The notes: generated by a model not told the origin, from the letters alone. Counted from the first letter of the stretch, positions 9,576-58,508 are shown. The stretch: 64,000 nt of DNA from a bacterium UBA2214 (GCA_002327255.1 DCUM01000204.1:781-64780); one strand, 5' to 3'. Made by a program: numbers and translations.

Positions 9576-10718
9576 TTACTCAACGCGTGATTCGATCAGT
9601 GTATATTCACCGGAAGCAATTTTGGCAAGAATGGCGCGTATTTGTTCCCGCGAAATCCAGCGGCCGTTGAGCATGAAGAGTCCACTGGGCGTGAATCCAT
9701 CCAAGGCACCACCGGCCCTGAAAAAGGTTTCCAGGTCATCGCCCAGCAGCGCGCGCAACTGCGCCAGCAAGGCTTCATCGCTCAGCGCGCCCATGGCAGC
9801 GCTCGCATCGTGGACGATGAATGACCAAATCTCACTGGGCAGTTCCAGGGGCGCCCCGGAGGAGGGCGCCATGCCGGTTATCTGCCAGTAGTAAATTTTG
9901 CCCGGTTCCAGGGGCCAGGCGCCGAAGGCAGGGTAGGGATACGCCGTGACAGAAATGTATTCACCGCCGTCGCTGGAAAAAGCGCCGGCGCGCGCGGGAT
10001 CCAGGGTGAAGGTGCGTTCGAAACGAATCCGGTCCTGAATGATCTCCGCCGGACTGGCGCTGTCATGCACCCCGGGAAGTTTTTCGGCAAGGATGAGTTT
10101 ATACTGATCCATATTGGAGGTCCAACGGAAGATGGGCTGTGTACCGGTTATAACGGCGGGCGCATCGCGCTCCGCCGGCGAGCCCGGTCCGATCAAATCC
10201 AGACTGGAGGGATTGGAGACGTCGATTTCGATAAAGGTGGAGGAGAGCTCCGCATCTCCTTCGGCGGGCTTTATGACAAACGTGAAGCGGTAGATATCCG
10301 AGGGCAGTTTGCCGAGTTTGAGGACGCGATCCCGCAATTGGCTGCCGTTATCGAGAATCTGATACTCCTGCAGGGCGAACTGTTGCGCCTGGGTGAAGAG
10401 ATTCTGATTGGTGAGGCGCATCAGGGCGCCACCCGGTAACGCGAAAGGACGGGTGATGCCGGCTGCCAATTCTCCCAACCGCATGGAACTGATCCCCACC
10501 CACAGTCGCGCCGTTTGCGGCAGCGGCGAGGTGTTTTGGATGGTGAGCGCAAATATTTCATTGGCGGAAGTGCCACGTCCGCTGAGATTCAGATCACTGA
10601 GAAAAAAGACGCGCAAATCGCGCTGAATCAACTGTGCATGCACCTGCACCTGCGCCCTGGCGGCCAGCGTGGGAAACATCCAGATCATCAGGAAGATGAT
10701 CGCTTTTCGGCCATACAT
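9576..10718 (-). CDS. Secreted hypothetical protein
   Basis: ORF 9576..10730. The likely start is M5, with signal peptide MYGRKAIIFLMIWMFPTLAARAQ. It is the first gene of the minus-strand operon. No recognisable family. Confidence 0.5.
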   Translation of the reverse strand: MYGRKAIIFLMIWMFPTLAARAQVQVHAQLIQRDLRVFFLSDLNLSGRGTSANEIFALTIQNTSPLPQTARLWVGISSMRLGELAAGITRPFALPGGALMRLTNQNLFTQAQQFALQEYQILDNGSQLRDRVLKLGKLPSDIYRFTFVIKPAEGDAELSSTFIEIDVSNPSSLDLIGPGSPAERDAPAVITGTQPIFRWTSNMDQYKLILAEKLPGVHDSASPAEIIQDRIRFERTFTLDPARAGAFSSDGGEYISVTAYPYPAFGAWPLEPGKIYYWQITGMAPSSGAPLELPSEIWSFIVHDASAAMGALSDEALLAQLRALLGDDLETFFRAGGALDGFTPSGLFMLNGRWISREQIRAILAKIASGEYTLIESRVE

Positions 10719-22638: not shown

Positions 22639-22881
22639 ATGGTATGTGAAAAAATCATCGAGCAGATTTGTGCCGAATTGGCGGAAGACATCGATGTGGA
22701 GGTCTGTCAGAAGGTCAAAGCGCATCTGCTGACGTGCCCGGAATGCGCACAGCAGCTGCAAGCGATGCGCATGACCGTGCATCTCTACGCGCTGCTTGGA
22801 GAGCGCGAGGTGCCGCAAAAAATCCATGAACGATTGGCTCTGTTGCTCAACCTGCCCTGTGCGGAATCGGGAAAAAGGTGA
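22639..22881 (+). CDS. Small zf-HC2 (anti-sigma factor-type zinc finger) protein, orphan
   Basis: 80 aa with GAGG upstream of the ATG. H-x3-C-x2-C motif: AHLLTCPECAQQ. No ECF sigma gene is adjacent. Confidence 0.45.
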   Translation: MVCEKIIEQICAELAEDIDVEVCQKVKAHLLTCPECAQQLQAMRMTVHLYALLGEREVPQKIHERLALLLNLPCAESGKR

Positions 22882-22900
22882 ACAAAAGAGCACTTTATTC

Positions 22901-22929
22901 TTGACAGAGAGTGAAATTTTGCGTATACT
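22901..22929 (+). promoter_or_regulatory. Near-consensus sigma70 promoter of lexA operon (TTGACA-17-TATACT)
   Basis: TTGACA 22901-22906, 17-nt spacer, TATACT 22924-22929. It lies 41 nt upstream of the lexA ATG. Confidence 0.5.
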
Positions 22930-22931
22930 GA

Positions 22932-22951
22932 GGGTGAAAGGAATTTCACCC
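22932..22951 (+). promoter_or_regulatory. Perfect 8-4-8 palindrome GGGTGAAA-GGAA-TTTCACCC between -10 and RBS of lexA; candidate LexA operator (SOS box)
   Basis: Inverted repeat read directly from the sequence. A third GTGAAA half-site lies in the promoter spacer (22912-22917). Confidence 0.4.
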
Positions 22952-22969
22952 TTTTTTTATGGGAGGGTT

Positions 22970-23578
22970 ATGGAAAAGCTGTCACGAAAACAGGAGAAGG
23001 CACTGGCGTTGATCGCCAAACGCACCCGCGAGCAGGGGTATCCGCCGACGCTGGCGGAGTTGACCGAGGAACTCGGGGCGGCCTCGAAAAACACCGCGGT
23101 CAAGTACCTGCGCATCCTCTCGCGCAAGGGCTATATCGTCTGGGAACGCAACAAGGCGCGGGGGATTCAGCTGACCGCCGATGCCGGCGGGGGCGAGGTG
23201 GGACTGCCGCTGATCGGCGCGGTGGCGGCCGGCGCGCCGTTGCTGGCCGAACAGAATATCGAACGCTATGTGACGGTGCCTTCCTGCTTGCTCCAGGCCA
23301 GTGCGCCGCATTTTCTCCTGCGCGTCGCCGGCCAGAGCATGCTCCAGGCCGGCATCCTGCCCGACGATCTCGTGGTGGTACGGGCGCAACCGCATGCGGC
23401 CGTGGGCGAAGTGGTGGTCGCCCTGATCGACGGGGAAGCCACGGTGAAACGGCTGGCGCAGAGCGCCGACCGCCTCTTTCTCAAGGCGGAAAATCCGGAA
23501 TTTGCCGACATCCACCCGCAAGGGGAGTGGTCGATTCAGGGCAAGGTGGTGGCGCTGATCCGCGAAGCGGTGGTGTGA
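22970..23578 (+). CDS. lexA: LexA repressor
   Basis: Internal Met of ORF 22796..23578 with a GGGAGGG RBS. N-terminal wHTH: MEKLSRKQEKALALIAKRTREQGYPPTLAELTEELG. C-terminal S24 peptidase: VAGQSMLQAGIL (Ser) and GKVVALIR (Lys). Confidence 0.85.
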   Translation: MEKLSRKQEKALALIAKRTREQGYPPTLAELTEELGAASKNTAVKYLRILSRKGYIVWERNKARGIQLTADAGGGEVGLPLIGAVAAGAPLLAEQNIERYVTVPSCLLQASAPHFLLRVAGQSMLQAGILPDDLVVVRAQPHAAVGEVVVALIDGEATVKRLAQSADRLFLKAENPEFADIHPQGEWSIQGKVVALIREAVV

Positions 23579-23854
23579 CAGGCGCCTGCAGCTCGACGCG
23601 TCTCGTCGACCTGCAGAACGGCGCTGTCCGGCTGTGCCTGCGATTTCGGCATTCTTCATTAAATGCAACGCGCTCGTCGATCGGCATGACAGCGCTGTCC
23701 TTAGGTGAAACGGCTTCTCAACGCGGCGGCGAAACGGCAGGAAATGGAGTATACCGATACCAAATCTCCTTGGCGAACTGTCGCAAAAGGGGCTGCCGAT
23801 CAGAAAGAAGACCATCCCCCGGCGCAAGGCGCGAAAAAGGGTGGAAGGGGAAAG

Positions 23855-23882
23855 GAAGAGAGAAGAGAGAAGAGAGAAGAGA
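23855..23882 (+). repeat. Tandem heptamer repeat (GAAGAGA)x4 within a ~60-bp polypurine tract upstream of imuB
   Basis: gaagaga gaagaga gaagaga gaagaga with degenerate flanks ggaagggg aaag and gaatgga gaagagg. The tract spans 23842..23899. Confidence 0.9.
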
Positions 23883-23962
23883 GAATGGAGAAGAGGGAAA
23901 AGGCCCCGGGTTCTGCCGCGCCTCTTACAGCAAACAGGGTGATTTCTTTGGACGGAAACTTT

Positions 23963-25126
23963 ATGTCGCGCACGATTTTGCATATCGACGTCAACGATTT
24001 TCCCGTGGCCGTGGAACGGGTGCTGGAGCCGCGCCTGCGGCAACGCCCCGTGGCCGTGGCGGTGGAGAGCGCCAGCCGCGCCCTCGTCGCCGCGCGTTCG
24101 CGCGAAGCGGCCGCCAACGGCGTGCAGCGCGGCATGCCCCTGCACCAGGCCCTGAAATACTGCCCGGATCTGACCGTGCTGCCCCCCAACGAAGCGCTCT
24201 ATCACCGCGCCACAACCGCGCTGCTGCACCTCCTCGGTCAGTTCACGCCCGTCATCGAACCGCTGCGCTTCGGCCACGCCTACCTCGACCTCACCGGCTC
24301 CGGCCGCCTCTTCGGCAACGGCGTCGATGCCGCCGCCCGCGCCCAGCGCGAAATCCGCGACCGCCTCCGCCTCGACGCCGTCGCCGGCGTCGCCAGCAAC
24401 AAACTGGTCAGCAAGGTCGCCTCCGATGTCATCACCGTCCGGAACCCGCAAACCGCCCTCTGCGACGTCCACTACGGCGAGGAACAACGCTTCCTCGCGC
24501 CGCTGCCGGTGGGCTATCTGCCCGGCGTGCAGAAAACCATCCGCGCCCAACTGACCGAACTCAACATCCACCGCATCCGGGAACTGGCGGGGATCAAATC
24601 CGAACACCTGCAGATGGTCTTCGGCCGCTTCGGCCTGCTGCTCTTCCAGCGCGCCCGCGGCATCGACGAGCGCCCGGTGATGCCGCCCCGGCGCAGCCCG
24701 GAGATCGTCGAAACCGTCGAACTGGCCGACGACGGCAACGACTATGAAGCGTTGCGCCGCCTGACCTTCGCGCTGCTCGCCCGCGCCACCCGCCGCCTGC
24801 GCCGCGACCGCCTCTTCACCCGGCACCTGGGGGTGGAAATCCTCTATGGCGATCACCGCCGCGACACGGCGCAGACCCGCACCGCCGCAGCGCAAACCGA
24901 CGCCGATCTCCTCGCCGTCGCCGAAACAACTTTGGGAAAGGCCCTGGCGCGGCGCGTGCGCGTACGCAAAATCACCCTGCGCCTCGGCGGCCTCGGCCCG
25001 GCCAGCGGCCAGCTCGGACTCTTTGCCGCCACCGAAAATCCCAAATATGCCGCGCTCACCGGCGCCATGGACAAAATCCGCGACCGCTTCGGCGATGCCG
25101 CCATCCGCTTCGGGTATGCCGCCTGA
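23963..25126 (+). CDS. imuB: ImuB, catalytically inactive Y-family DNA polymerase paralogue of the SOS mutagenesis cassette
   Basis: Starts MSRTILHIDVNDFPVAVE, aligning with DinB MRKIIHVDMDCFFAAVE but with the second Asp replaced by Asn. The SLDEAYLD catalytic DE position reads RFGHAYLD. Catalytic carboxylates are therefore lost, as is typical of ImuB. It sits between lexA and dnaE2. Confidence 0.75.
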   Translation: MSRTILHIDVNDFPVAVERVLEPRLRQRPVAVAVESASRALVAARSREAAANGVQRGMPLHQALKYCPDLTVLPPNEALYHRATTALLHLLGQFTPVIEPLRFGHAYLDLTGSGRLFGNGVDAAARAQREIRDRLRLDAVAGVASNKLVSKVASDVITVRNPQTALCDVHYGEEQRFLAPLPVGYLPGVQKTIRAQLTELNIHRIRELAGIKSEHLQMVFGRFGLLLFQRARGIDERPVMPPRRSPEIVETVELADDGNDYEALRRLTFALLARATRRLRRDRLFTRHLGVEILYGDHRRDTAQTRTAAAQTDADLLAVAETTLGKALARRVRVRKITLRLGGLGPASGQLGLFAATENPKYAALTGAMDKIRDRFGDAAIRFGYAA

Positions 25127-25246
25127 AACGGCGACAGGAGGGCGGCAATCCGGTGCGCCGGACAGCCCCGCAATGCAACGGAACGCCTGCAGAAAAAAGT
25201 TGATCTTTACCAAAATTATGCTAAATTGCTCCCTGGAGGCGCGACC

Positions 25247-26122
25247 ATGATCATCTCCGCCAGCCGCCGCACCGACATCCCGCGCTATTACGCCAAGTGG
25301 TTCATCCGCCGCGTGCGCGCCGGCCACTGCACCGTGCCCAATCCCTTCAATCCCGGACAGGTGCGCCGCGTCGACCTGCGCCCCGAAGCTGTCACCGCCC
25401 TGGTGTTCTGGACGCGGTTTCCAAAGCTGTTAATGCCCTATATACCGGAACTTGAACACAGGAAATTAAAGTTTTACTTTCAATATACCATCACGCGTTA
25501 TCCCGATCGGTATGAACCCGGCGCACCGCCCGCGGAGGAGGCGATCGCCTGCTTTCGTTCCCTGGCCCGGCTGTTGGGCCCGGGACGCATGATCTGGCGC
25601 TACGACCCGATTTTTTTCACGGATGAATGTGATCCGGACGATCATCTGCAGAACTTTGCACGCCTGTGCGCGCAGTTGCAGGGCTGCACCCGCAAGGTGG
25701 TGATCAGTTTTCTCGATGAATACCGCCGCACGCGGAGCCGGATGCGCGCGGCGGGCGTGGCTTATCCGGGCGATCCCCTGCAACATCCGGGTCTGAAGCC
25801 CCTGCTGCAGGCCATGGTGGAGATCGCCGCGCATCATCACCTGGGCATCGAATCGTGCGCCGAACCCGAATGGCTGCAATCGTATGGCATTGCCACAGGC
25901 CGCTGCATCGATGAGCGATTGCTGCAATCCGAATTCGGGGTAAGAGTGGCCTATAAAAAGGATCCGGGACAGCGTCCCCTGTGCGGCTGCATGCCGAGCA
26001 GGGACATTGGCAGCAACAATACCTGTCCGGCCGGCTGCCTGTACTGCTATGCCACCCCAAATCCTGCTCAGGCGCAAGAACGCTTTTGCCGCCATGACGT
26101 GAAGGCGGAATCTCTCATTTAA
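25247..26122 (+). CDS. DUF1848-family protein (putative Fe-S protein) embedded in SOS cassette
   Basis: GGAGG 8 nt before the ATG. N-terminal MIISASRRTDIPRYYAKWF resembles the DUF1848 signature ISASRRTDIPAFY. C-terminal CPAGCLYC is a CxxxCxxC motif. Confidence 0.55.
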   Translation: MIISASRRTDIPRYYAKWFIRRVRAGHCTVPNPFNPGQVRRVDLRPEAVTALVFWTRFPKLLMPYIPELEHRKLKFYFQYTITRYPDRYEPGAPPAEEAIACFRSLARLLGPGRMIWRYDPIFFTDECDPDDHLQNFARLCAQLQGCTRKVVISFLDEYRRTRSRMRAAGVAYPGDPLQHPGLKPLLQAMVEIAAHHHLGIESCAEPEWLQSYGIATGRCIDERLLQSEFGVRVAYKKDPGQRPLCGCMPSRDIGSNNTCPAGCLYCYATPNPAQAQERFCRHDVKAESLI

Positions 26123-26151
26123 TCCATTGGCCTCGAAAGGGAGTAACCACT

Positions 26152-27321
26152 ATGTCGAACGTGAAGATTATTCAATTTTCCAACAAAACCGCCCAGGATC
26201 GCCGTCTCTTGAAAGTATTCGTCGATTTTCACTGGAAACACTATGAGCACGATCCGCAGTACATCCCCCTGCTCGATTATGAGTATCTCGGATTCAAACT
26301 CCTCGGCATGACCGGTTTTTTTGAACCCGGCAATCTGTTCTTCAAGCATGGGGAAATGGTTTTTTTTCTGGCCCAGTGCGGCGATCACATCGTCGGCTGC
26401 TGCAACGCCTTTGTCAATCATAATCACAACAAACACTGGAATGACAAGGTCGGCTTCTTCGGCCAGTTCGAAACCATCGATGACCAGGAGGTCGCTGAAG
26501 CGCTGTTGAACGCCGCAGCCACCTGGCTGAGAAGCAAAGGCATGACCGCCATGCGCGGCCCGCAGAATCTGCCGGTCAACGAAGCCACCCCGGGGTGTCT
26601 GGTGGAGGGGTTCGACACCCGCCCCGTGGTCTATTATCATTACAACAAGCCCTATTATGAAAAGATTTTGCAAGCTTATCAGATGCAGGTGGTCAAACGC
26701 GTCAAATCCTGGGAAGTGCCCGTGGACCGGCCCATGGAGGAGAAGCTGGGGCGCGTCGGCAAAAAGGTGATGGAGCACTATGGCGTGCGCGTCGAAAACT
26801 GGGGAGAGCGGCCGTTGCCGGTGCGCAAGGAGGAGATGCTGCAGGTCTACAATGAGGCCTGGAATGACAACTGGGGCTATGTGCCCTTCACCCGGGAAGA
26901 GTTTTGCAAAAACATCGACGATATGCAACTGATCATGGAAAAAGGTCTCTTTATCTTTGTCTATGTCAAGGATGAATTGGCCGCTTTTTTTGGCGGCGTG
27001 CCGAATATTTTTGAACGCATGCAGCCGCTCTCCTGGTGCCGCCGTTGTGAATTTGTCCGCGCGGCGCGCATGCTGCTGTCCAGACACAAGATAAGAGGGT
27101 TCCGGCTCGGCTACATGGGCGTCCGGCCCAAATTCCGCCGGCTCGGCCTCGACGGCGTCATGTTGTGGCAGCAAAAGATCTTTGCGCAGCAGAAGGGTTA
27201 CGACTATAGCGATCTCGGCTGGGTGCTGGAAGATAATGTGCTGATCATACGCGTCGTCGAAATGATGCAGGACGTCAGGCTCTCCAAAGTCTATGCCATT
27301 TTTCAAAAAGAGCTTGTCTGA
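26152..27321 (+). CDS. Hypothetical protein, probable GNAT/FemAB-like acyltransferase fold, embedded in SOS cassette
   Basis: 389 aa with GGGAG RBS. It has two halves with an acyl-CoA N-acyltransferase-like pattern. No specific family is recognised with certainty. Confidence 0.45.
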   Translation: MSNVKIIQFSNKTAQDRRLLKVFVDFHWKHYEHDPQYIPLLDYEYLGFKLLGMTGFFEPGNLFFKHGEMVFFLAQCGDHIVGCCNAFVNHNHNKHWNDKVGFFGQFETIDDQEVAEALLNAAATWLRSKGMTAMRGPQNLPVNEATPGCLVEGFDTRPVVYYHYNKPYYEKILQAYQMQVVKRVKSWEVPVDRPMEEKLGRVGKKVMEHYGVRVENWGERPLPVRKEEMLQVYNEAWNDNWGYVPFTREEFCKNIDDMQLIMEKGLFIFVYVKDELAAFFGGVPNIFERMQPLSWCRRCEFVRAARMLLSRHKIRGFRLGYMGVRPKFRRLGLDGVMLWQQKIFAQQKGYDYSDLGWVLEDNVLIIRVVEMMQDVRLSKVYAIFQKELV

Positions 27322-27329
27322 GCGCTGCG

Positions 27330-30300
27330 ATGTCCCCGGCAGGAGCTCCCGGTGGTTTTGTCCACCTGCATGTTCACTCCCATTACAGTCTGTGCCGGGG
27401 CGCCAATACCATCGCGGATATCTGCCGCCGCGCCCGCGACATCGGCCTTTCTCATCTCGCCCTGACCGATACCAACGGCATCTACGGACTGGTGTGGTTT
27501 CTCCAGGAGGCGCGCGCGCAGGGTATCCAGCCCCTCATCGGCGCCTTTCTGCAGCACCAATCCAACCACGCGGTGATGCTGGCGAAAAATCGCGCCGGCT
27601 ACCGCACGCTGTGCCGCACCCTGACCGCCCTGCACGGGGATGACCCTTTCGACCTCATCACCTGGCTGCAGCGCAACCGGGAGCAGACCATCCTCTTCAG
27701 CGACGATCTCCAGCTGCTCACCGCCCTGACGGATTCCGGCGTGCGCGATGATCTCTACGCCGAGCTCATTCCGCACCGGCAACGCCACAAAATCCTGCAA
27801 TTCGCACGCGAAAGGCATCTTCCGCCGCTGGCGAGCCAGGGCGCCTATTTTCTCGACCGCGCCGATTATGCGGTGCATCGCCTCCTGCGCGCCATCGATC
27901 TGAACACCACGCTGACCCGTATTCCGGAGGCAGAACTGGCCGCGCCGCAGGCCTGTATGGCGACGCCGCGGGAGATGCAGCACTTTTTCCCGGATTGCCC
28001 GGAAGCCATCGAGAATACCCGCAAGATCGCCGCAGCATGCGCTTTCGATCTCGATTTCGGCGGCGCTATTTTTCCCTCTTTCAGCGGTCCGGATGGGGAG
28101 GATGCACAGACTTGTCTTCAGGATCAGGTCGAAAAAGGCGCCCTGTGGCGTTACGACGCCATCACACCTCCGGTTCAACAACGCATGGTGTATGAACTGG
28201 ATCTCATCAACCGCAAGGGATTCGCGCCCTATTTTCTGGTCGTCGCCGACGCCGTGCGCCAGGCGCCGCGCACCTGCGGACGCGGATCCGCGGCCGCCAG
28301 TCTGGTGAGCTATTGCCTCGGCATCACCCATGTCGATCCCATCAAATACGATCTTTTTTTCGAACGCTTTCTCAATCCGGGGCGCATCGATCCACCGGAT
28401 ATCGATGTCGATTTTCCCTGGGATGAGCGCGACGATATCATTGATTACCTCTTTCGCAAATATGGCCGGTCGTGCGTGGCCATGATCGCCAACCACAACG
28501 GCTTCAAGGCGCGCTCTGCCGTGCGTGAAATCGCCAAAGTGTATGGCCTCCCGGATCGCGAAATAGGCCTCATCACCAAAAAGCTGACCAGTTATTGGCA
28601 GCCCGGCAATCTTGAGGAAGTGATCGCCACCCATCCGGTTTTCCACGGCACGGAATTGCGTCCGCCGTGGCCCGAAATTTTGCAGATGGCAGATAAAATC
28701 CGCGGTTTTCCACGGCATCTTTCCATTCACTGCGGCGGCGTCGTCATCGCCCCGGATGGACTCGATCACTATTGTGCCGTGCAACCGGCCAAAAAGATAC
28801 TTCAACCTGCCGGCGTTCTCTCCCGCGGCGACACGGGGCTGCCGCGGGCGCTCGAGCATGTGCAAGTGGTACACTGGGAGAAAGACCAGTCGGAAGAGAT
28901 GGGTCTGGTGAAAATGGACATCCTCGGCAACCGCTCCCTGGCCGTCATCCGCGATGCACGCCGTGCGGTGCTGGACAACTATGGCGTGGAACTGGACTTC
29001 AACCGCATCAATCCCCAGGAAGATGAAGCGACCCGGGCGTTGCTGGCGCGCGGCGACACCATCGGCGTCTTTTATGTGGAATCACCCGCCATGCGGCAGT
29101 TGCAACGCAAGACCGGCAAAGGCGACTTTGAACATCTGGTCATTCACAGCTCCATCATCCGGCCGGCCGCGGCGGTCTTCATTCAGGAATACGTCCGCCG
29201 TTTGCGCGGCGGCGCCTGGACCCCCCTGCATCCGGCTGTGGAGGAGTTGCTCCGGGAAACCTATGGTATCATGGTCTATCAGGAGGACGTCTCGAAAGTC
29301 GCCATCGCTTTGGCCGATTTTGATGCATCCGGCGCCGACGAACTGCGCAAGATCGTCACCAAGAAAAACAAACATCGCCAGTTGGCTGATTATAAGGAGC
29401 GTTTTTTTTGCGGCGCCATGAAAAAAGGCGCCGACGCGGAGATGTGCGAAAAAATATGGGCGATGATCCTGAGTTTCGCCGAATACAGTTTTTGCAAGCC
29501 ACATTCGGCCTCCTTTGCGCTGGTCTCCTGCCAGTCGGCCTATTTGCGCGTTCATTATCCGGCCGAGTTCATCGCCGCGGTGATCAGCAATCAGGGCGGT
29601 TATTATTCGACCTTTGCGTATGTGTCGGAAGCGCGGCGCATGGGACTGGAAGTCCTGGCGCCGGACATCAACCAGAGTCTGCAGAAATACACGGGCGTGG
29701 AGCGTCAGGTGCGCGTGGGATTGATGCAATTGAAGGGATTGTCGCAGCACGCCCTTGAAACCGTGCTGGCGGAGAGAGAAAAAAACGGGCCCTTTGCTTC
29801 TTTTTGCGATTTTTTGTCCCGCGTCACTTTGGATGCGACGGATATTGCTATCTTTATAAAGGCGGGATGCTTTGATATCCTCGAATCGGGACAAACCCGG
29901 CCGCAACTGGTATGGCATCTGCATGGGTGGCAGGCGCAGAAAAAAGCGTTATCCACTCCCGGCGCCACCCTTTCTCTCTTTGAGGCAGACACCCGAACAC
30001 CGCAGGGACTTCCCGCTCCACCCGCCTATTGTGCCGAGCAAGTGTGGCGGATGGAAGAAGAAATTCTCGGATTTCTGCTGTCGCAGCATCCGCTGATGCT
30101 GTATACGGCCAAAATTCAGCGCATCCCGCATGTCCGGGGTTGTGATTTGCAGCGGCATATCGGCAAACGGGTTCATACCATCGGCTGGCTCATCACCGCC
30201 AAGGTGGTCAGCACCCGGAATAAAGACCTCATGGAATTCGTCAGTTTTGAAGACACGACGGCCATCTATGAGACCACTTTTTTCCCAAAAGCGTATGCCC

Positions 30301-30407
30301 GCTTCGCGCAGCGGATGAGCAACGATCGTCCCTTTCTGTTACAGGGCACAGTCGATGAACAATTTGGCGCCGTCTATCTGAATGTCGAAGAGATGAACTA
30401 TTTGTGA
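27330..30407 (+). CDS. dnaE2: Error-prone DNA polymerase DnaE2 (ImuC), Pol III alpha paralogue
   Basis: 1025 aa, a DnaE2-typical size. PHP domain HLHVHSHYSLCRGA. Catalytic FPDIDVDF. Finger GRGSAAASLVSYCLGITHVDP. It is the last gene of the lexA-imuB operon. Confidence 0.85.
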   Translation: MSPAGAPGGFVHLHVHSHYSLCRGANTIADICRRARDIGLSHLALTDTNGIYGLVWFLQEARAQGIQPLIGAFLQHQSNHAVMLAKNRAGYRTLCRTLTALHGDDPFDLITWLQRNREQTILFSDDLQLLTALTDSGVRDDLYAELIPHRQRHKILQFARERHLPPLASQGAYFLDRADYAVHRLLRAIDLNTTLTRIPEAELAAPQACMATPREMQHFFPDCPEAIENTRKIAAACAFDLDFGGAIFPSFSGPDGEDAQTCLQDQVEKGALWRYDAITPPVQQRMVYELDLINRKGFAPYFLVVADAVRQAPRTCGRGSAAASLVSYCLGITHVDPIKYDLFFERFLNPGRIDPPDIDVDFPWDERDDIIDYLFRKYGRSCVAMIANHNGFKARSAVREIAKVYGLPDREIGLITKKLTSYWQPGNLEEVIATHPVFHGTELRPPWPEILQMADKIRGFPRHLSIHCGGVVIAPDGLDHYCAVQPAKKILQPAGVLSRGDTGLPRALEHVQVVHWEKDQSEEMGLVKMDILGNRSLAVIRDARRAVLDNYGVELDFNRINPQEDEATRALLARGDTIGVFYVESPAMRQLQRKTGKGDFEHLVIHSSIIRPAAAVFIQEYVRRLRGGAWTPLHPAVEELLRETYGIMVYQEDVSKVAIALADFDASGADELRKIVTKKNKHRQLADYKERFFCGAMKKGADAEMCEKIWAMILSFAEYSFCKPHSASFALVSCQSAYLRVHYPAEFIAAVISNQGGYYSTFAYVSEARRMGLEVLAPDINQSLQKYTGVERQVRVGLMQLKGLSQHALETVLAEREKNGPFASFCDFLSRVTLDATDIAIFIKAGCFDILESGQTRPQLVWHLHGWQAQKKALSTPGATLSLFEADTRTPQGLPAPPAYCAEQVWRMEEEILGFLLSQHPLMLYTAKIQRIPHVRGCDLQRHIGKRVHTIGWLITAKVVSTRNKDLMEFVSFEDTTAIYETTFFPKAYARFAQRMSNDRPFLLQGTVDEQFGAVYLNVEEMNYL

Positions 30408-30436
30408 TCGTGAAAAGCGGCTGCCGGCTTTGATAC

Positions 30437-31519
30437 TTGAATACGAGTACGCCCTGTACAATCCCCGTTGAGATGACAGAGGAACAGATGCACAACCTAT
30501 CCCTACAGCGTTTCATTAAAGAACTGCCCAAAGTGGAATTGCATCTCCATCTGGAAGGCGCCATCCGTCCCGAGACGGCTCTGAATTTGATGCGCCGCAA
30601 CCGTTCGGCCCCTTTGCCTGAAAACAGCGAACAGGTCAGGGCGTTATACCGTTTTGAGGATCTCTCCCAGTTTGTCCTCGCCATGCGTGCGGTCTCCAAT
30701 CATATCCGCTCTCTGGAAGATTTGCAAAATATCACGCAGGAAATGCTCAGCGATCTCATTGCGCAACACACCTTCTATGTCGAATTTGATTGTGCCCTGC
30801 AAAAATATATCGATCTGGGCTACCCCCTGGTGGAGATTCTCGAGGCGCTCCATGCGACGACGCAGGCCTTCCGGGAGCAGATTCATGCCCGCCTCATCGT
30901 CAATTTGCAGCGTTCCCATGGTTCTGACAAAACGGCCGCGCTGGTCGAGGAAGTAGCCCGCCTCAATCATCCCCTGGTCGCCGGGATCGGATTATCGGGG
31001 GATGAATCCAGATTTCCGCAAAAATGGTTTGTGCGCGCCTTTGCGGTGGCCCGGGAGGCGGGCCTGAAGCGTACCGTGCACGCCGGTGAAGCCCTCGGTC
31101 CGGAGAGCATCCGGGAGGCGCTCGACCTCCTGCATGCCCAGCGCATCGATCACGGCACGCAGGCCCATAAAGACGCGCATCTGCTGGAGCGTCTGAAAGC
31201 GGAGGGCATCCCCCTGACCCAGTGCATCAGCAGCAATGTGCGCTTGCATATCGTCGATCGCATCGAGGATCATCCCTTTGTGGATTACCTGCGCGGGGGT
31301 CTGGTGACGGCCTTGCACACGGATGATCCACAGGTCTTTGGCATCTCATTGACATCAGAGTATGAACTGGCCGCCACAACCTTCGACCTCTCCCGTGAGG
31401 AAATCGTACAAATTCTGTTGAATGGCATCCAGGGTTCATTTATGCCCGATCGCATTCGCCACAGCCTGATCGGCCAATTCAAGGCCCTTTACGCCGATCA
31501 ACACACCCTTTCAGCGTGA
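30437..31519 (+). CDS. add: Adenosine deaminase
   Basis: PKVELHLHLEGAIRPET, TVHAGEALG (HAGE motif), ALHTDDPQVFGISL. Confidence 0.8.
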   Translation: MNTSTPCTIPVEMTEEQMHNLSLQRFIKELPKVELHLHLEGAIRPETALNLMRRNRSAPLPENSEQVRALYRFEDLSQFVLAMRAVSNHIRSLEDLQNITQEMLSDLIAQHTFYVEFDCALQKYIDLGYPLVEILEALHATTQAFREQIHARLIVNLQRSHGSDKTAALVEEVARLNHPLVAGIGLSGDESRFPQKWFVRAFAVAREAGLKRTVHAGEALGPESIREALDLLHAQRIDHGTQAHKDAHLLERLKAEGIPLTQCISSNVRLHIVDRIEDHPFVDYLRGGLVTALHTDDPQVFGISLTSEYELAATTFDLSREEIVQILLNGIQGSFMPDRIRHSLIGQFKALYADQHTLSA

Positions 31520-31664: not shown

Positions 31665-32402
31665 TCAGAGAAACCGGATATTGCGCTGTGAGAGGTCCGA
31701 TTCAATTTCCTGCAAATCAGTCCACTTGCCCACATCCCGCCAGTAGCAGTCATCCATCTGATGGCCCATGATGCGTTCACCCCGCCCCGCCGCCCGCAGA
31801 TAGGCGTCGATACTGGAAAATTTATCGGCGGGATAGTTGCCAAAAAGGAGTGGATCGATGACCTGAATGCCATTAAAGGCCCAAGGGAGGGGTTTGCCCC
31901 GGGGTTGGCGCACCCATTCACAGCGTCTTGCGTCGGCGGCCATCCGTCCGCATAAGAGGTGACTTTCATCGAACAACAAATAGCGCCGGGTGGGACGGCT
32001 TTGTAGCGCCAGCGTGGCCCTGTTGCCGTGGCGGAGGTGCGCTTCATAGAGCCGTTCCAGGGGCAGATCCGAAAAGACATCGACATTGTGCACCAGAATC
32101 GGGGCATCGCTGCCGAGGAGAGGTATCATCTTTTTGATGCCGCCGCCGGTCTCCAGGATCTCGGCTTCGATGGACAGATGTATTTTGAGAGTTTCCGCCG
32201 CATAGGTGGCGAGAAATTCAACGAGCTGGTCGGCGAGGTGGTGTCCATTGATGGCGATTTCGTCAAAACCGGCGTGCTGCAGCCGCTGCAGGACGTGGGC
32301 AAGGAGCGGCTTGCCCGCCACCGGGATCAACGCTTTGGGTGTTTTGTCGGTGAGCGGCCGCAAGCGGGTGCCGAATCCGGCCGCCAGGATCATCGCTCTC
32401 AT
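31665..32402 (-). CDS. murU: Sugar-1-phosphate nucleotidyltransferase (MurU-like N-acetylmuramate-1-P uridylyltransferase / mannose-1-P guanylyltransferase family)
   Basis: MRAMILAAGFGTRLRPLTDKTPKALIPVAGKPLL NTP-transferase motif. It is in an operon with an AmgK-like kinase. Confidence 0.65.
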   Translation of the reverse strand: MRAMILAAGFGTRLRPLTDKTPKALIPVAGKPLLAHVLQRLQHAGFDEIAINGHHLADQLVEFLATYAAETLKIHLSIEAEILETGGGIKKMIPLLGSDAPILVHNVDVFSDLPLERLYEAHLRHGNRATLALQSRPTRRYLLFDESHLLCGRMAADARRCEWVRQPRGKPLPWAFNGIQVIDPLLFGNYPADKFSSIDAYLRAAGRGERIMGHQMDDCYWRDVGKWTDLQEIESDLSQRNIRFL

Positions 32403-32812
32403 GAAAAATCCGGTTTGTCCATGTGGGTGAGCCGCACCTGAAAACCCTCGCGGCGCAGACGGGCAGCCATCAGATCGGCACAGTACACCGAGCGGTGCTG
32501 TCCGCCCGTGCAGCCGAAGGATACCATGAGGTGTCCAAAGCCGCGCTGCTGATAATTCAGGGCGCTGTCGCGGATCAGCGTCCAGGCGTTCTCAATAAAA
32601 CGTTCGACCTGGGGACTTTTTTCCAGAAAGTCGCGCACCTCCGGGTCTTCTCCGGTGCGCTTGTGAAATTCAGGATCACGGCCGGGATTGGGAAGGCCGC
32701 GACAATCAAAGACAAAACCGCCGCCGTGACCGCCTGGATCACGCGGAATGCCTGAGACATGGAAACCGAAACTGAAGACGGAGATGGTCAGTGCTTCATG
32801 GTCTTTCATCAT
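32399..32812 (-). CDS. Stand-alone RapZ (YhbJ) C-terminal domain homologue, 137 aa
   Basis: SFGFHVSGIPRD...GFVFDCRGLPNPGRDPEF...DFL and HLMVSFGCTGGQHRSVYCADLMA closely match the RapZ CTD ([47 protein letters not shown]). There is no P-loop N-domain. Confidence 0.65.
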   Translation of the reverse strand: MMKDHEALTISVFSFGFHVSGIPRDPGGHGGGFVFDCRGLPNPGRDPEFHKRTGEDPEVRDFLEKSPQVERFIENAWTLIRDSALNYQQRGFGHLMVSFGCTGGQHRSVYCADLMAARLRREGFQVRLTHMDKPDFS

Positions 32813-32839
32813 GCTATTTCCCTGATGGCGGGTGCCACC

Positions 32840-33859
32840 CTACAGGTCGCGCAAGGTGGCGTCCTCGATGAGATCGGTGAATATCCGCCGCAAAACCGGC
32901 AGGTGTTCGAGCAAAGCGGCTTTGTGGTTTATGATTTCCAGATTCTGCAGGGCGTAAGGGACCGATTTCAGGAAATTCTTTTTGCCTTTGACGGTGGCCA
33001 GATACCCATAGGCCCCGAAGGCCTGCATGACGCGGATCATCACAAACCCGTAAAAGTAATGGAGAAAGTTTTCCGCGTCGCAGGGCTCCACTTCCTGCAG
33101 ACAATAGAGATAGTAATTCAACAATTCCTCGCGCACCGCCTGGGGTATGCTGGCTTTGGCATCGAAGAGGAGGGAGGCGACATCGTATTGCAGCGCCCCG
33201 CGGCGTCCCGATTGAAAATCGATGAAATAGGGTTCATCCTCCAGGATCATGATGTTGCGCGACTGAAAATCGCGATAGAGGAAAGAATCACCCGGTGCCT
33301 CCAGCAGGTGGCTGACCAGACGGTCAAAATCGCCCTCGAGAGCGCTTGCGTCAAAAGGCCGTTGGTAGAAAGCCGAGAGGAAGCGATGTTGAAAATAGCG
33401 TAAATCCCAGATCATGGATTCCCGGGAAAACCGGGCGTGCTGGTAACAATAGGAATAATCGAGGCGGCGGCCCGCCGTGATCTGCAGCCGCGGCAGCCAC
33501 TTCAAGACCTTTTTGTACATATCGATGATGCGGGTAGAGAATCCACCCTGCTGGCGAATGGGCGTCATCCATTCAAACAGCGTATAATGGCCCAGATCCT
33601 GTTCCAGGTAGACGCCATTTTCGAGGTCCTCGATATATATTTCCGGTACCGGGATGCCGCAGGCGAAAAAATGTCTGGCGAATTGAACAAACGCTTCATT
33701 TTCAGGCCGGTTATCGCCGGCGACGCCGATGATGGAACGATACGCGTTCTGCATGCGATAGACGCGCCGCTCCGAGCCGTCGCCTTTGAGCGGATTAATG
33801 CGATCGGGCGTCTCGTCATAACAGGTACGAAAAAGTTTTTCCAGCAGCCTTGTTTCCAA
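32840..33859 (-). CDS. amgK: Aminoglycoside-phosphotransferase-fold sugar kinase, AmgK-like (MurNAc/GlcNAc anomeric kinase)
   Basis: APH-family catalytic loop YRDFQSRNIMI (HxDxxxxN variant) and DFQSGRRG (DFG-like). It is paired with a MurU-like gene. Confidence 0.6.
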   Translation of the reverse strand: METRLLEKLFRTCYDETPDRINPLKGDGSERRVYRMQNAYRSIIGVAGDNRPENEAFVQFARHFFACGIPVPEIYIEDLENGVYLEQDLGHYTLFEWMTPIRQQGGFSTRIIDMYKKVLKWLPRLQITAGRRLDYSYCYQHARFSRESMIWDLRYFQHRFLSAFYQRPFDASALEGDFDRLVSHLLEAPGDSFLYRDFQSRNIMILEDEPYFIDFQSGRRGALQYDVASLLFDAKASIPQAVREELLNYYLYCLQEVEPCDAENFLHYFYGFVMIRVMQAFGAYGYLATVKGKKNFLKSVPYALQNLEIINHKAALLEHLPVLRRIFTDLIEDATLRDL

Positions 33860-57749: not shown

Positions 57750-58508
57750 ATGCTCGCCAGAAGGATCATCCCGTGTCTGGACGTCAAGGAAGGGCGCGTG
57801 GTCAAAGGAACCCAATTTGTCAATTTGCGCGATGCCGGCGATCCGGTTGAGCAAGCGCGTTTTTATGACGAGCAGGGGGCTGACGAACTTGTTTTTTTGG
57901 ATATCACGGCATCCGCAGAATACCGTGATATCATCTATGATGTAGTAGCGCATACCGCTGAGCAGGTTTTCATGCCGCTGACGGTCGGCGGCGGCATTCG
58001 CACGGTGGCGGATGCCCGTAAATTGCTGCAGAGTGGTGCCGATAAAATCGCCATCAACACAGCGGCGCTGCAGGAGCCGGAACTGGTCGCTGCGTGCGCG
58101 CGTCAGTTCGGCAGTCAAGCGGTCGTCGTGGCCATCGATGCGCGCCGGATATCGGCCGGGAGGTGGCAAGTCTTTATTCATGGAGGTCGCACCGCCATGG
58201 ATGTGGATGCGGTACAATGGGCACTCGAGGCAGAGCACAGAGGCGCCGGTGAAATTCTTCTCACCTCGATGGATCGCGACGGTACCAGGGATGGTTACGA
58301 TATAGATCTCACGCGCGCCATCAGCACCCGCGTCAACATCCCTGTGATTGCTTCGGGGGGCTGCGGCGAGGCCGCCCATTTTTTTGATGTCTTTGAAAAT
58401 GGCAAAGCCGACGCCGCATTGGCTGCATCGGTCTTCCATTACCGGCACAACAGCATCGCCGAAATCAAGAACTATCTCAAGGAGAGAGGCATCCATGTCC
58501 GAATATGA
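57750..58508 (+). CDS. hisF: Imidazole glycerol phosphate synthase cyclase subunit
   Basis: [32 protein letters not shown]. Confidence 0.85.

Follow-up and report, generated by a model that had tools for sequence, protein, structure and literature searches.

The 64,000-nucleotide stretch of the genome of bacterium UBA2214 analyzed here (GCA_002327255.1 DCUM01000204.1:781-64780; hereafter, the window) carries at positions 22,901-30,407 a LexA-linked cassette, in which the genes for an inactive Y-family polymerase (iPolY) and a DnaE2-type alpha subunit of DNA polymerase III (Pol III) are separated by two genes, encoding a DUF1848 protein and a GNAT-fold protein. Do these two genes encode mutasome factors, or are they passengers? 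The evidence favors passengers: with a probability of about three in four, the locus is a KSB1 member of the described ImuA-less DnaE2B-iPolY-RecA system, interrupted by two lineage-specific passenger genes. The window has a G+C content of about 55%, and protein matches point to candidate division KSB1 as the affiliation of its uncultured host. All five genes lie on the plus strand, as reported in the initial annotation, and the gaps between them, given there as 9-385 bp, were recomputed after start correction as 384, 120, 29, and 8 bp:

22970-23578, plus strand: lexA, 202 aa (TIGR00498, E = 2e-56; PF01726, PF00717)
23963-25126, plus strand: iPolY, 387 aa (PF00817, PF11799, PF21999)
25247-26122, plus strand: DUF1848 protein, 291 aa (PF08902, E = 2e-92)
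26152-27321, plus strand: predicted tandem-GNAT acyltransferase, 389 aa (weak match to PF00583, E = 2e-4)
27330-30407, plus strand: DnaE2-type Pol III alpha, 1025 aa

An ImuA-Less Cassette

The lexA product consists of winged-helix and S24 domains and scores 190.8 bits against TIGR00498 (cutoff 111); its translation contains the self-cleavage site (VAAG) as well as the serine (GQSM) and lysine (VKRL) motifs. The open reading frame (ORF) of iPolY spans positions 23705-25126, but all of the 36 aligned homologs begin with M-x-R (MSRT), which places the start at 23963. The public gene model of this protein (413 aa) begins 26 codons 5' of the start common to the homologs.

Residues D103-E104 of E. 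coli Pol IV align to G104-H105 of iPolY, G104 being invariant in the 36 homologs; with the catalytic D-E pair replaced by G-H, iPolY is predicted to be catalytically dead. Near the C-terminus, the clamp motif QLGLF is followed by PKYAALTGAMDKIRDRFGDAAIRFG, and the chain ends six residues past a RecA-NT-like motif. The 36 homologs conserve both QLxLF (Q350 and F354 invariant) and the RecA-NT-like motif, and most of them terminate at the same point. In an hhalign comparison, residues 359-381 aligned to residues 5-27 of RecA, the oligomerization helix (35% identity, E = 0.019); this match is short, weak, and the sole one, and falls at the predicted place. The ImuB-C beta-barrel is absent from the 387-aa protein. 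The motifs and architecture of iPolY fit the "gbDinB2-like" group rather than ImuB; the protein is about 40% identical to the iPolYs of Desulfobacterota cassettes. The initial annotation was therefore right in describing a dead Y-family polymerase, but the protein is not ImuB, as it lacks the ImuB-C domain and its chain ends after the RecA-NT-like motif.

The Pol III alpha subunit retains intact catalytic motifs (PDIDVDF and KMD), so that it looks polymerase-competent, and lacks the tau-binding C-terminal tail of DnaE1. It scored below the cutoffs of both the error-prone polymerase model NF004225 (598 bits vs. 939) and the DnaE model NF004226 (719 bits vs. 1002); these scores, together with the missing tail, are consistent with a divergent DnaE2 clade.

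No RecA/SulA-like domain was detected in the 26 products between 8.9 and 44 kb that were scanned with Pfam, that is, no ImuA is encoded nearby. A LexA-linked cassette with a DnaE2-type polymerase and without imuA is thus present as initially annotated, but the lack of imuA is not a novelty. An ImuA-less putative DnaE2B-iPolY-RecA mutasome has been described by Timinskas and Venclovas (2019; PMC6511836) and in a 2026 survey in Nucleic Acids Research (PMC12926913). According to the survey's account of these systems, genomes with DnaE2B have neither imuA nor imuB, and the polymerase is coupled to a "gbDinB2-like" inactive PolY carrying a RecA-NT motif, RecA being the proposed third subunit; in the accounts of both sources, RecA is proposed to fill the role of ImuA in such cassettes. 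The absence of imuA from the window is hence expected, since the system was published as one that lacks ImuA.

Distribution of the Cassette

The cassette was traced by a scan anchored on the iPolY alignment (80 loci, one genome per species), the seven proteins of the window being located by tblastn; individual loci are denoted by L and a number. Outside the close KSB1 clade, dnaE2 directly follows iPolY in 46 loci, one per species, from Acidobacteriota, Desulfobacterota, Polarisedimenticolia, TA06, Phycisphaerae, and other KSB1. The distance is within 650 bp in 45 of them (median 124 bp). Neither a GNAT nor a DUF1848 homolog was found within 10 kb in any of the 46 loci.

The close KSB1 clade comprises 28 loci with iPolYs 52-85% identical. 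GNAT follows iPolY in 15 of them, and most of these run on into dnaE2 and the adenosine deaminase gene. DUF1848 is present in only five of the 28, in three arrangements: as in the window (L010, plus L005); 58 bp after iPolY and before the gene for a secreted protein of 849 aa, GNAT and dnaE2 both being absent (L017, L086); and 3.7 or 6.6 kb downstream, its start or stop codons overlapping genes of large secreted proteins (L020, L059). One genome carries a split cassette, with lexA, iPolY, and DUF1848 on one contig (L059) and GNAT, a gene for a 1438-aa protein, dnaE2, and the deaminase gene on another (L009). The co-occurrence of DUF1848 or GNAT with iPolY-dnaE2, proposed initially as a check on their role, is thus confined to one KSB1 clade.

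As a synteny control, the positions of other neighbors were compared. The adenosine deaminase gene, a trio of NTP-transferase, PapZ_C, and APH-kinase genes on the opposite strand, and the upstream Usp gene are as deeply conserved in position as GNAT; an upstream ORF, u2_333, the positional counterpart of a gene annotated as CorA in L008, is conserved as well, and the syntenic block spans the whole 15-20 kb in the clade. Because this region rearranges slowly and its neighbors are equally conserved, the GNAT-dnaE2 adjacency should be counted as a single inherited arrangement and not as repeated independent evidence of linkage. The pair is also broken in places: the 4.3-kb gene of the 1438-aa protein intervenes in L009, and L015 and L018 each have about 1 kb between the two genes; in L014 and L028, dnaE2 no longer follows GNAT. 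More generally, genes wedged for a long time in a repair operon call for a synteny control before they are named accessory factors, since housekeeping neighbors may be, as they are here, equally deeply conserved in position.

The Inserted Genes

Neither inserted protein had a significant sequence match in the Protein Data Bank or a model in NCBIfam. The fold model of the 389-aa protein matched GNATs only, with two GNAT folds in one chain, the best structural matches being small-molecule (amino-sugar or thiol) acetyltransferases. According to this model, the protein is a tandem GNAT acyltransferase of the small-molecule type and is not RecA/SulA-like. A motif resembling the acetyl-CoA loop, KFRRLGLDG, is near-invariant. 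The known tandem-repeat GNATs (MAB_4324, the glucosamine N-acetyltransferase of C. acetobutylicum, MshD, and clavulanate ORF14) show 10-15% sequence identity to the window protein, and tandem-repeat GNAT acetyltransferases have no reported link with DNA polymerases.

A scan anchored on GNAT yielded four orthologs with 63-69% identity, each on a long contig and in a setting unrelated to the cassette: between an SSF transporter gene and a GH172 gene beside alpha-amylase (two loci), between a pyruvate-formate-lyase-like gene and an M28 peptidase gene (one), and alone (one). The SSF/GH172 setting hints at a role in carbohydrate or amino-sugar metabolism. In a neighbor-joining tree, these four copies from outside the cassette fall among the cassette copies, which leaves unsupported the alternative that the latter are paralogs of a housekeeping copy; as judged from the sequences, GNAT is one orthologous family conserved in KSB1, with its position varying between lineages. 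In L001 (7945-12403) and L092 (7956-12395), GNAT lies between the sodium:solute symporter and GH172 genes, near genes for alpha-amylase and a CBM9 protein.

The true start of DUF1848 is the ATG at 25247, which gives a protein of 291 aa that PF08902 matches over its full length. Its fold model matched radical S-adenosylmethionine (SAM) enzymes and TIM barrels and showed no RecA/SulA fold. An invariant CX3CXYC motif is located at the C-terminus (residues 247-270) on a radical-SAM-like partial TIM barrel, and this placement suggests a permuted cluster site. The structure predictions thus bear out part of the initial description of the GNAT/FemAB-like protein, namely, the GNAT fold, here in tandem, and speak against both proteins as substitutes for ImuA, neither being RecA/SulA-like in its model.

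The PADLOC model RTasDUF1848, built for the partner of the UG25 methylase-reverse-transcriptase, matches the window protein with E = 6.5e-42; a DUF1848 subfamily accompanies this defense candidate (PMC9226505). Unlike in the UG25 systems, no reverse transcriptase or methylase gene is found near the window DUF1848, which lies between the genes for a dead polymerase and a GNAT. In a DUF1848-anchored set of 80 metagenome loci and two further loci (82 in total, of which 46 measure 8 kb or more), no homolog of a Y-family polymerase, Pol III alpha, or GNAT was found, and lexA occurred within 10 kb in just one. DUF1848 overlaps or abuts genes for secreted proteins of about 680 and 850 aa in L017 (1982-5421), L086 (1479-4918), L020 (12779-18302), and L059 (15780-18688); the secreted proteins of L017, L020, and L059 have no homolog in the window. 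In L005 (about 1990-2200), DUF1848 and GNAT are 460 bp apart, as against 29 bp in the window, and this longer spacer contains a unit of about 35 bp repeated some five times in tandem (gctggtcagggaaacgagcgctggcacagacaaa).

Regulation

The following regulatory elements were predicted in the window:

22877-22894: candidate LexA box 1, GGTGAACAAAAGAGCACT, an imperfect copy just 5' of the -35 element, with one mismatch to GGTG-N10-CACC
22901-22929, plus strand: sigma-70-type lexA promoter, TTGACA-17-TATACT (11/12 match, conserved in L008 and L010)
22931-22952: candidate LexA box 2, a perfect palindrome AGGGTGAAAggaaTTTCACCCT, with the core GGTGA-N8-TCACC (22933-22950), 2 bp after the -10 element
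25200-25227, plus strand: internal promoter-like site before DUF1848, TTGATC-16-TGcTAAATT, with no LexA box

The consensus promoter and palindromic operator-like site of the initial annotation were thus recovered, and both have counterparts in relatives. In an alignment of about 20 KSB1 loci, the arms of box 2 upstream of lexA are conserved and its loop is variable; since the arms are kept in relatives while the loop varies, the promoter and palindrome are not a chance occurrence. The palindrome precedes lexA in L008, L010-L014, L018, L020, L022-L024, L027, L029-L032, L041, and L047, and box 1 is kept at the equivalent position in L008, L010-L013, and L022. The iPolY gene of L028 has no lexA in front of it but carries a copy of the box immediately 5', which fits the reading of the palindrome as a LexA operator. 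More distant clades of the locus set have CTGT-type boxes upstream of lexA instead. GGTGA-N8-TCACC, in two copies flanking the lexA promoter, is therefore proposed as a candidate LexA operator of the KSB1 lineage.

The palindrome was flagged as terminator-like in a scan, but its reading as an intrinsic terminator was rejected because the -10 element ends 2 bp before it, and the transcript would begin inside its 5' arm. An AT-rich GGTG-N10-CACC site at 58248 falls, as the translation shows, inside a hisF-like coding sequence and was considered a chance match; the remaining sites of this type elsewhere in the window have GC-rich spacers. The stop codon of the zf-HC2 gene (anti-sigma, RsrA-like) upstream of lexA falls within box 1.

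The site before DUF1848, which the initial annotation had not noted, is shared by the window, L010, and L005 (TTGAyC-16-TGcTAwATT), the L010 copy having a 10/12 match and an extended -10 element. In relatives without DUF1848, a conserved promoter-like element, cTTGgATTAaCcGCc.CAAATGCGTATaCT, precedes GNAT (five genomes). No LexA box was found before DUF1848, GNAT, or dnaE2 in the window, before GNAT or dnaE2 in L009, or before GNAT in the four non-cassette loci. The initial annotation had taken co-regulation with lexA to imply induction of the inserted genes by DNA damage; this cannot be derived from their position, because the internal promoter-like sites lack LexA boxes, and transcription of these genes is probably LexA-independent. 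Read-through from the lexA promoter into them is possible, since the intergenic gaps of the cassette contain no terminator-like hairpin.

These observations suggest the following scheme. LexA would bind the two GGTGA-N8-TCACC boxes bracketing its own promoter and repress lexA-iPolY; upon DNA damage, RecA-stimulated self-cleavage of LexA would de-repress the operon. The dead iPolY would then act as an adaptor, contacting the beta clamp via QLGLF and RecA via the C-terminal RecA-NT-like helix, and recruit the active DnaE2 for error-prone bypass, with RecA in place of ImuA. DUF1848 would be a radical-SAM-like enzyme, transcribed from a promoter of its own and found in few close relatives only, whereas GNAT would have come to adjoin dnaE2 in one clade and is probably co-transcribed with it via the internal promoter and read-through.

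Alternative Explanations

Several points weigh against the interpretation of the inserted genes as passengers of a DnaE2B-iPolY-RecA cassette. In ten genomes that represent the deepest splits of the clade, the GNAT stop codon and the dnaE2 start are between -7 and +17 bp apart; the deaminase gene is linked less tightly, and such spacing would fit functional pairing. The iPolY-dnaE2 junction is free of genes in 45 other genomes, which makes a long-lived insertion unusual. Within the clade, DUF1848 turns up close to iPolY in three different arrangements, and in seven KSB1 loci it lies 0.06-6.6 kb away; the subfamily linked to the methylase-reverse-transcriptase hints at a nucleic-acid substrate. 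Finally, the binding of LexA to its boxes, the binding of RecA, and co-transcription are themselves inferred.

The spacing bears most directly on the possibility that the tandem GNAT alone is tied to DnaE2, in this KSB1 clade only, as a co-translated protein that, e.g., acetylates DnaE2, iPolY, RecA, or the clamp, or inactivates a genotoxic amine-bearing compound. The adjacency holds across the deepest branches of the GNAT tree, the promoter-like element before GNAT in five genomes would drive both genes, and the near-invariant KFRRLGLDG motif also speaks for such a role. On the other hand, other sequence separates the pair in L009, L015, and L018, no dnaE2 comes after GNAT in L014 and L028, orthologs occur in sugar-type loci, the closest structures are small-molecule acetyltransferases, and the syntenic 15-20 kb region reduces the adjacency to one inherited event. 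We consider a clade-specific functional link of GNAT with dnaE2 unlikely, and this co-translated form of it equally so.

DUF1848 could instead be a radical-SAM-type enzyme of nucleic-acid repair or modification that was recruited to the SOS neighborhood without becoming a mutasome subunit. The invariant CX3CXYC motif, the subfamily link to UG25 systems (PMC9226505), and the proximity to iPolY in the seven loci would agree with this. However, the gene has its own promoter with no LexA box in front, in four of the seven loci its start or stop codons overlap genes of large secreted proteins and not repair genes, and none of the 82 other loci contains translesion genes, with lexA within 10 kb in one; such a recruitment appears quite improbable. 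A combined version, in which GNAT, translationally coupled to dnaE2, is a fourth component of the KSB1-clade system that modifies a mutasome protein or a genotoxin, and in which a subclade adds a nucleic-acid-acting permuted radical-SAM DUF1848, is similarly doubtful; if true, the recruitment of GNAT, with or without DUF1848, would represent a new type of regulated mutasome.

The proposal of the initial annotation that DUF1848 and GNAT are new mutasome accessory factors or ImuA substitutes, forming one damage-inducible transcript with lexA, iPolY, and dnaE2, draws on the co-directional genes, short gaps without terminator-like hairpins, the LexA-box promoter in front, and the lack of imuA among the 26 products, but is very unlikely, as both genes are missing from all 46 direct iPolY-dnaE2 cassettes elsewhere, no DUF1848-anchored locus of the 82 has a translesion polymerase, iPolY itself bears the RecA-binding type of motif proposed to replace ImuA in the account of PMC12926913, neither protein has a RecA/SulA fold, DUF1848 has its own promoter and is absent from most close relatives, and GNAT orthologs elsewhere lack LexA boxes. 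Overall, the genes, promoter, and palindrome of that annotation were confirmed, and most of its mutasome interpretation was not.

Gene Neighborhood

Three further features flank or interrupt the cassette:

22639-22881, plus strand: zf-HC2 (anti-sigma-like) gene, 80 aa (PF13490, E = 7.6e-5)
23579-23962: lexA-iPolY spacer specific to the window, 384 bp, with a purine-rich GAGAAGAGAG run
30437-31519, plus strand: adenosine deaminase gene (TIGR01430, E = 1.5e-78)

The co-directional run extends past dnaE2 to the adenosine deaminase gene 29 bp downstream, which had been overlooked in the initial annotation and which follows dnaE2 across the whole clade. The zf-HC2 gene is always directly 5' of lexA in the KSB1 clade, tblastn having located it there in 20 related loci. 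The NTP-transferase/PapZ_C/APH-kinase trio (31665-33859, minus strand) is convergent with the deaminase gene and conserved clade-wide; it resembles a sugar-1-phosphate recycling module.

No second copy of the 384-bp spacer was found in the window, nor any in the related loci, and a search of 22.4-31.8 kb against Rfam gave sub-threshold chance matches only, none of them inside the spacer. In L008, 18 bp separate lexA from iPolY; L010 has 175 bp of unrelated sequence at this place (9827-10000), and inserts of 1.3-4 kb are present in other relatives (L015, L018, L020, L059). This junction is a hotspot of insertion.

The G+C content at third codon positions (GC3) is 0.82 in lexA and 0.86 in iPolY vs. 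0.66-0.71 in the next four genes (25247-31519). An offset of the same sign but smaller was observed in several related genomes; being small, the offset is no evidence of a separate origin of lexA and iPolY. A 781-aa antisense ORF over these two genes (22982-25327, minus strand) is not a gene but an artifact of high GC3, as are long antisense ORFs over the GNAT gene and dnaE2.

Comparison with Known Systems

Read as a DnaE2B-iPolY-RecA cassette with passenger genes, the locus extends this recently described ImuA-less system to candidate phylum KSB1 and supplies a candidate LexA operator for the lineage, the GGTGA-N8-TCACC palindrome, which is present on both sides of the promoter. It shares with the published system an inactive PolY with clamp and RecA-NT-like C-terminal motifs and no ImuB-C, its pairing with a Pol III alpha of the DnaE2 type in the absence of imuA and, in many cases, behind lexA, and a broad phyletic spread, seen here in the direct iPolY-dnaE2 pairs at 46 loci. 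It differs by DUF1848 and the tandem GNAT between iPolY and dnaE2, which are on the same strand but 2.2 kb apart with the two genes intervening, and by its host: KSB1 has no complete genomes and was therefore probably outside the published survey.

The canonical (lexA-)imuA-imuB-dnaE2 cassettes of Pseudomonas, Caulobacter, and Mycobacterium (ImuA-ImuB-DnaE2A) are likewise SOS-linked and combine a dead Y-family adaptor carrying a clamp motif with an error-prone C-family polymerase. Unlike them, the window has no ImuA nearby, its Y-family protein lacks the ImuB-C beta-barrel, and its Pol III alpha falls under the NCBIfam error-prone cutoff. Geobacter sulfurreducens, an ImuA-less organism, has a lexA-imuB-C-polY operon (Jara et al., 2003, cited in PMC6511836), in which, according to that citation, an autoregulated lexA is co-transcribed with a Y-family polymerase gene. 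The operon as described there combines an active PolY with a standalone ImuB-C and includes no dnaE2, whereas the window combines a dead PolY with dnaE2 and has no ImuB-C.

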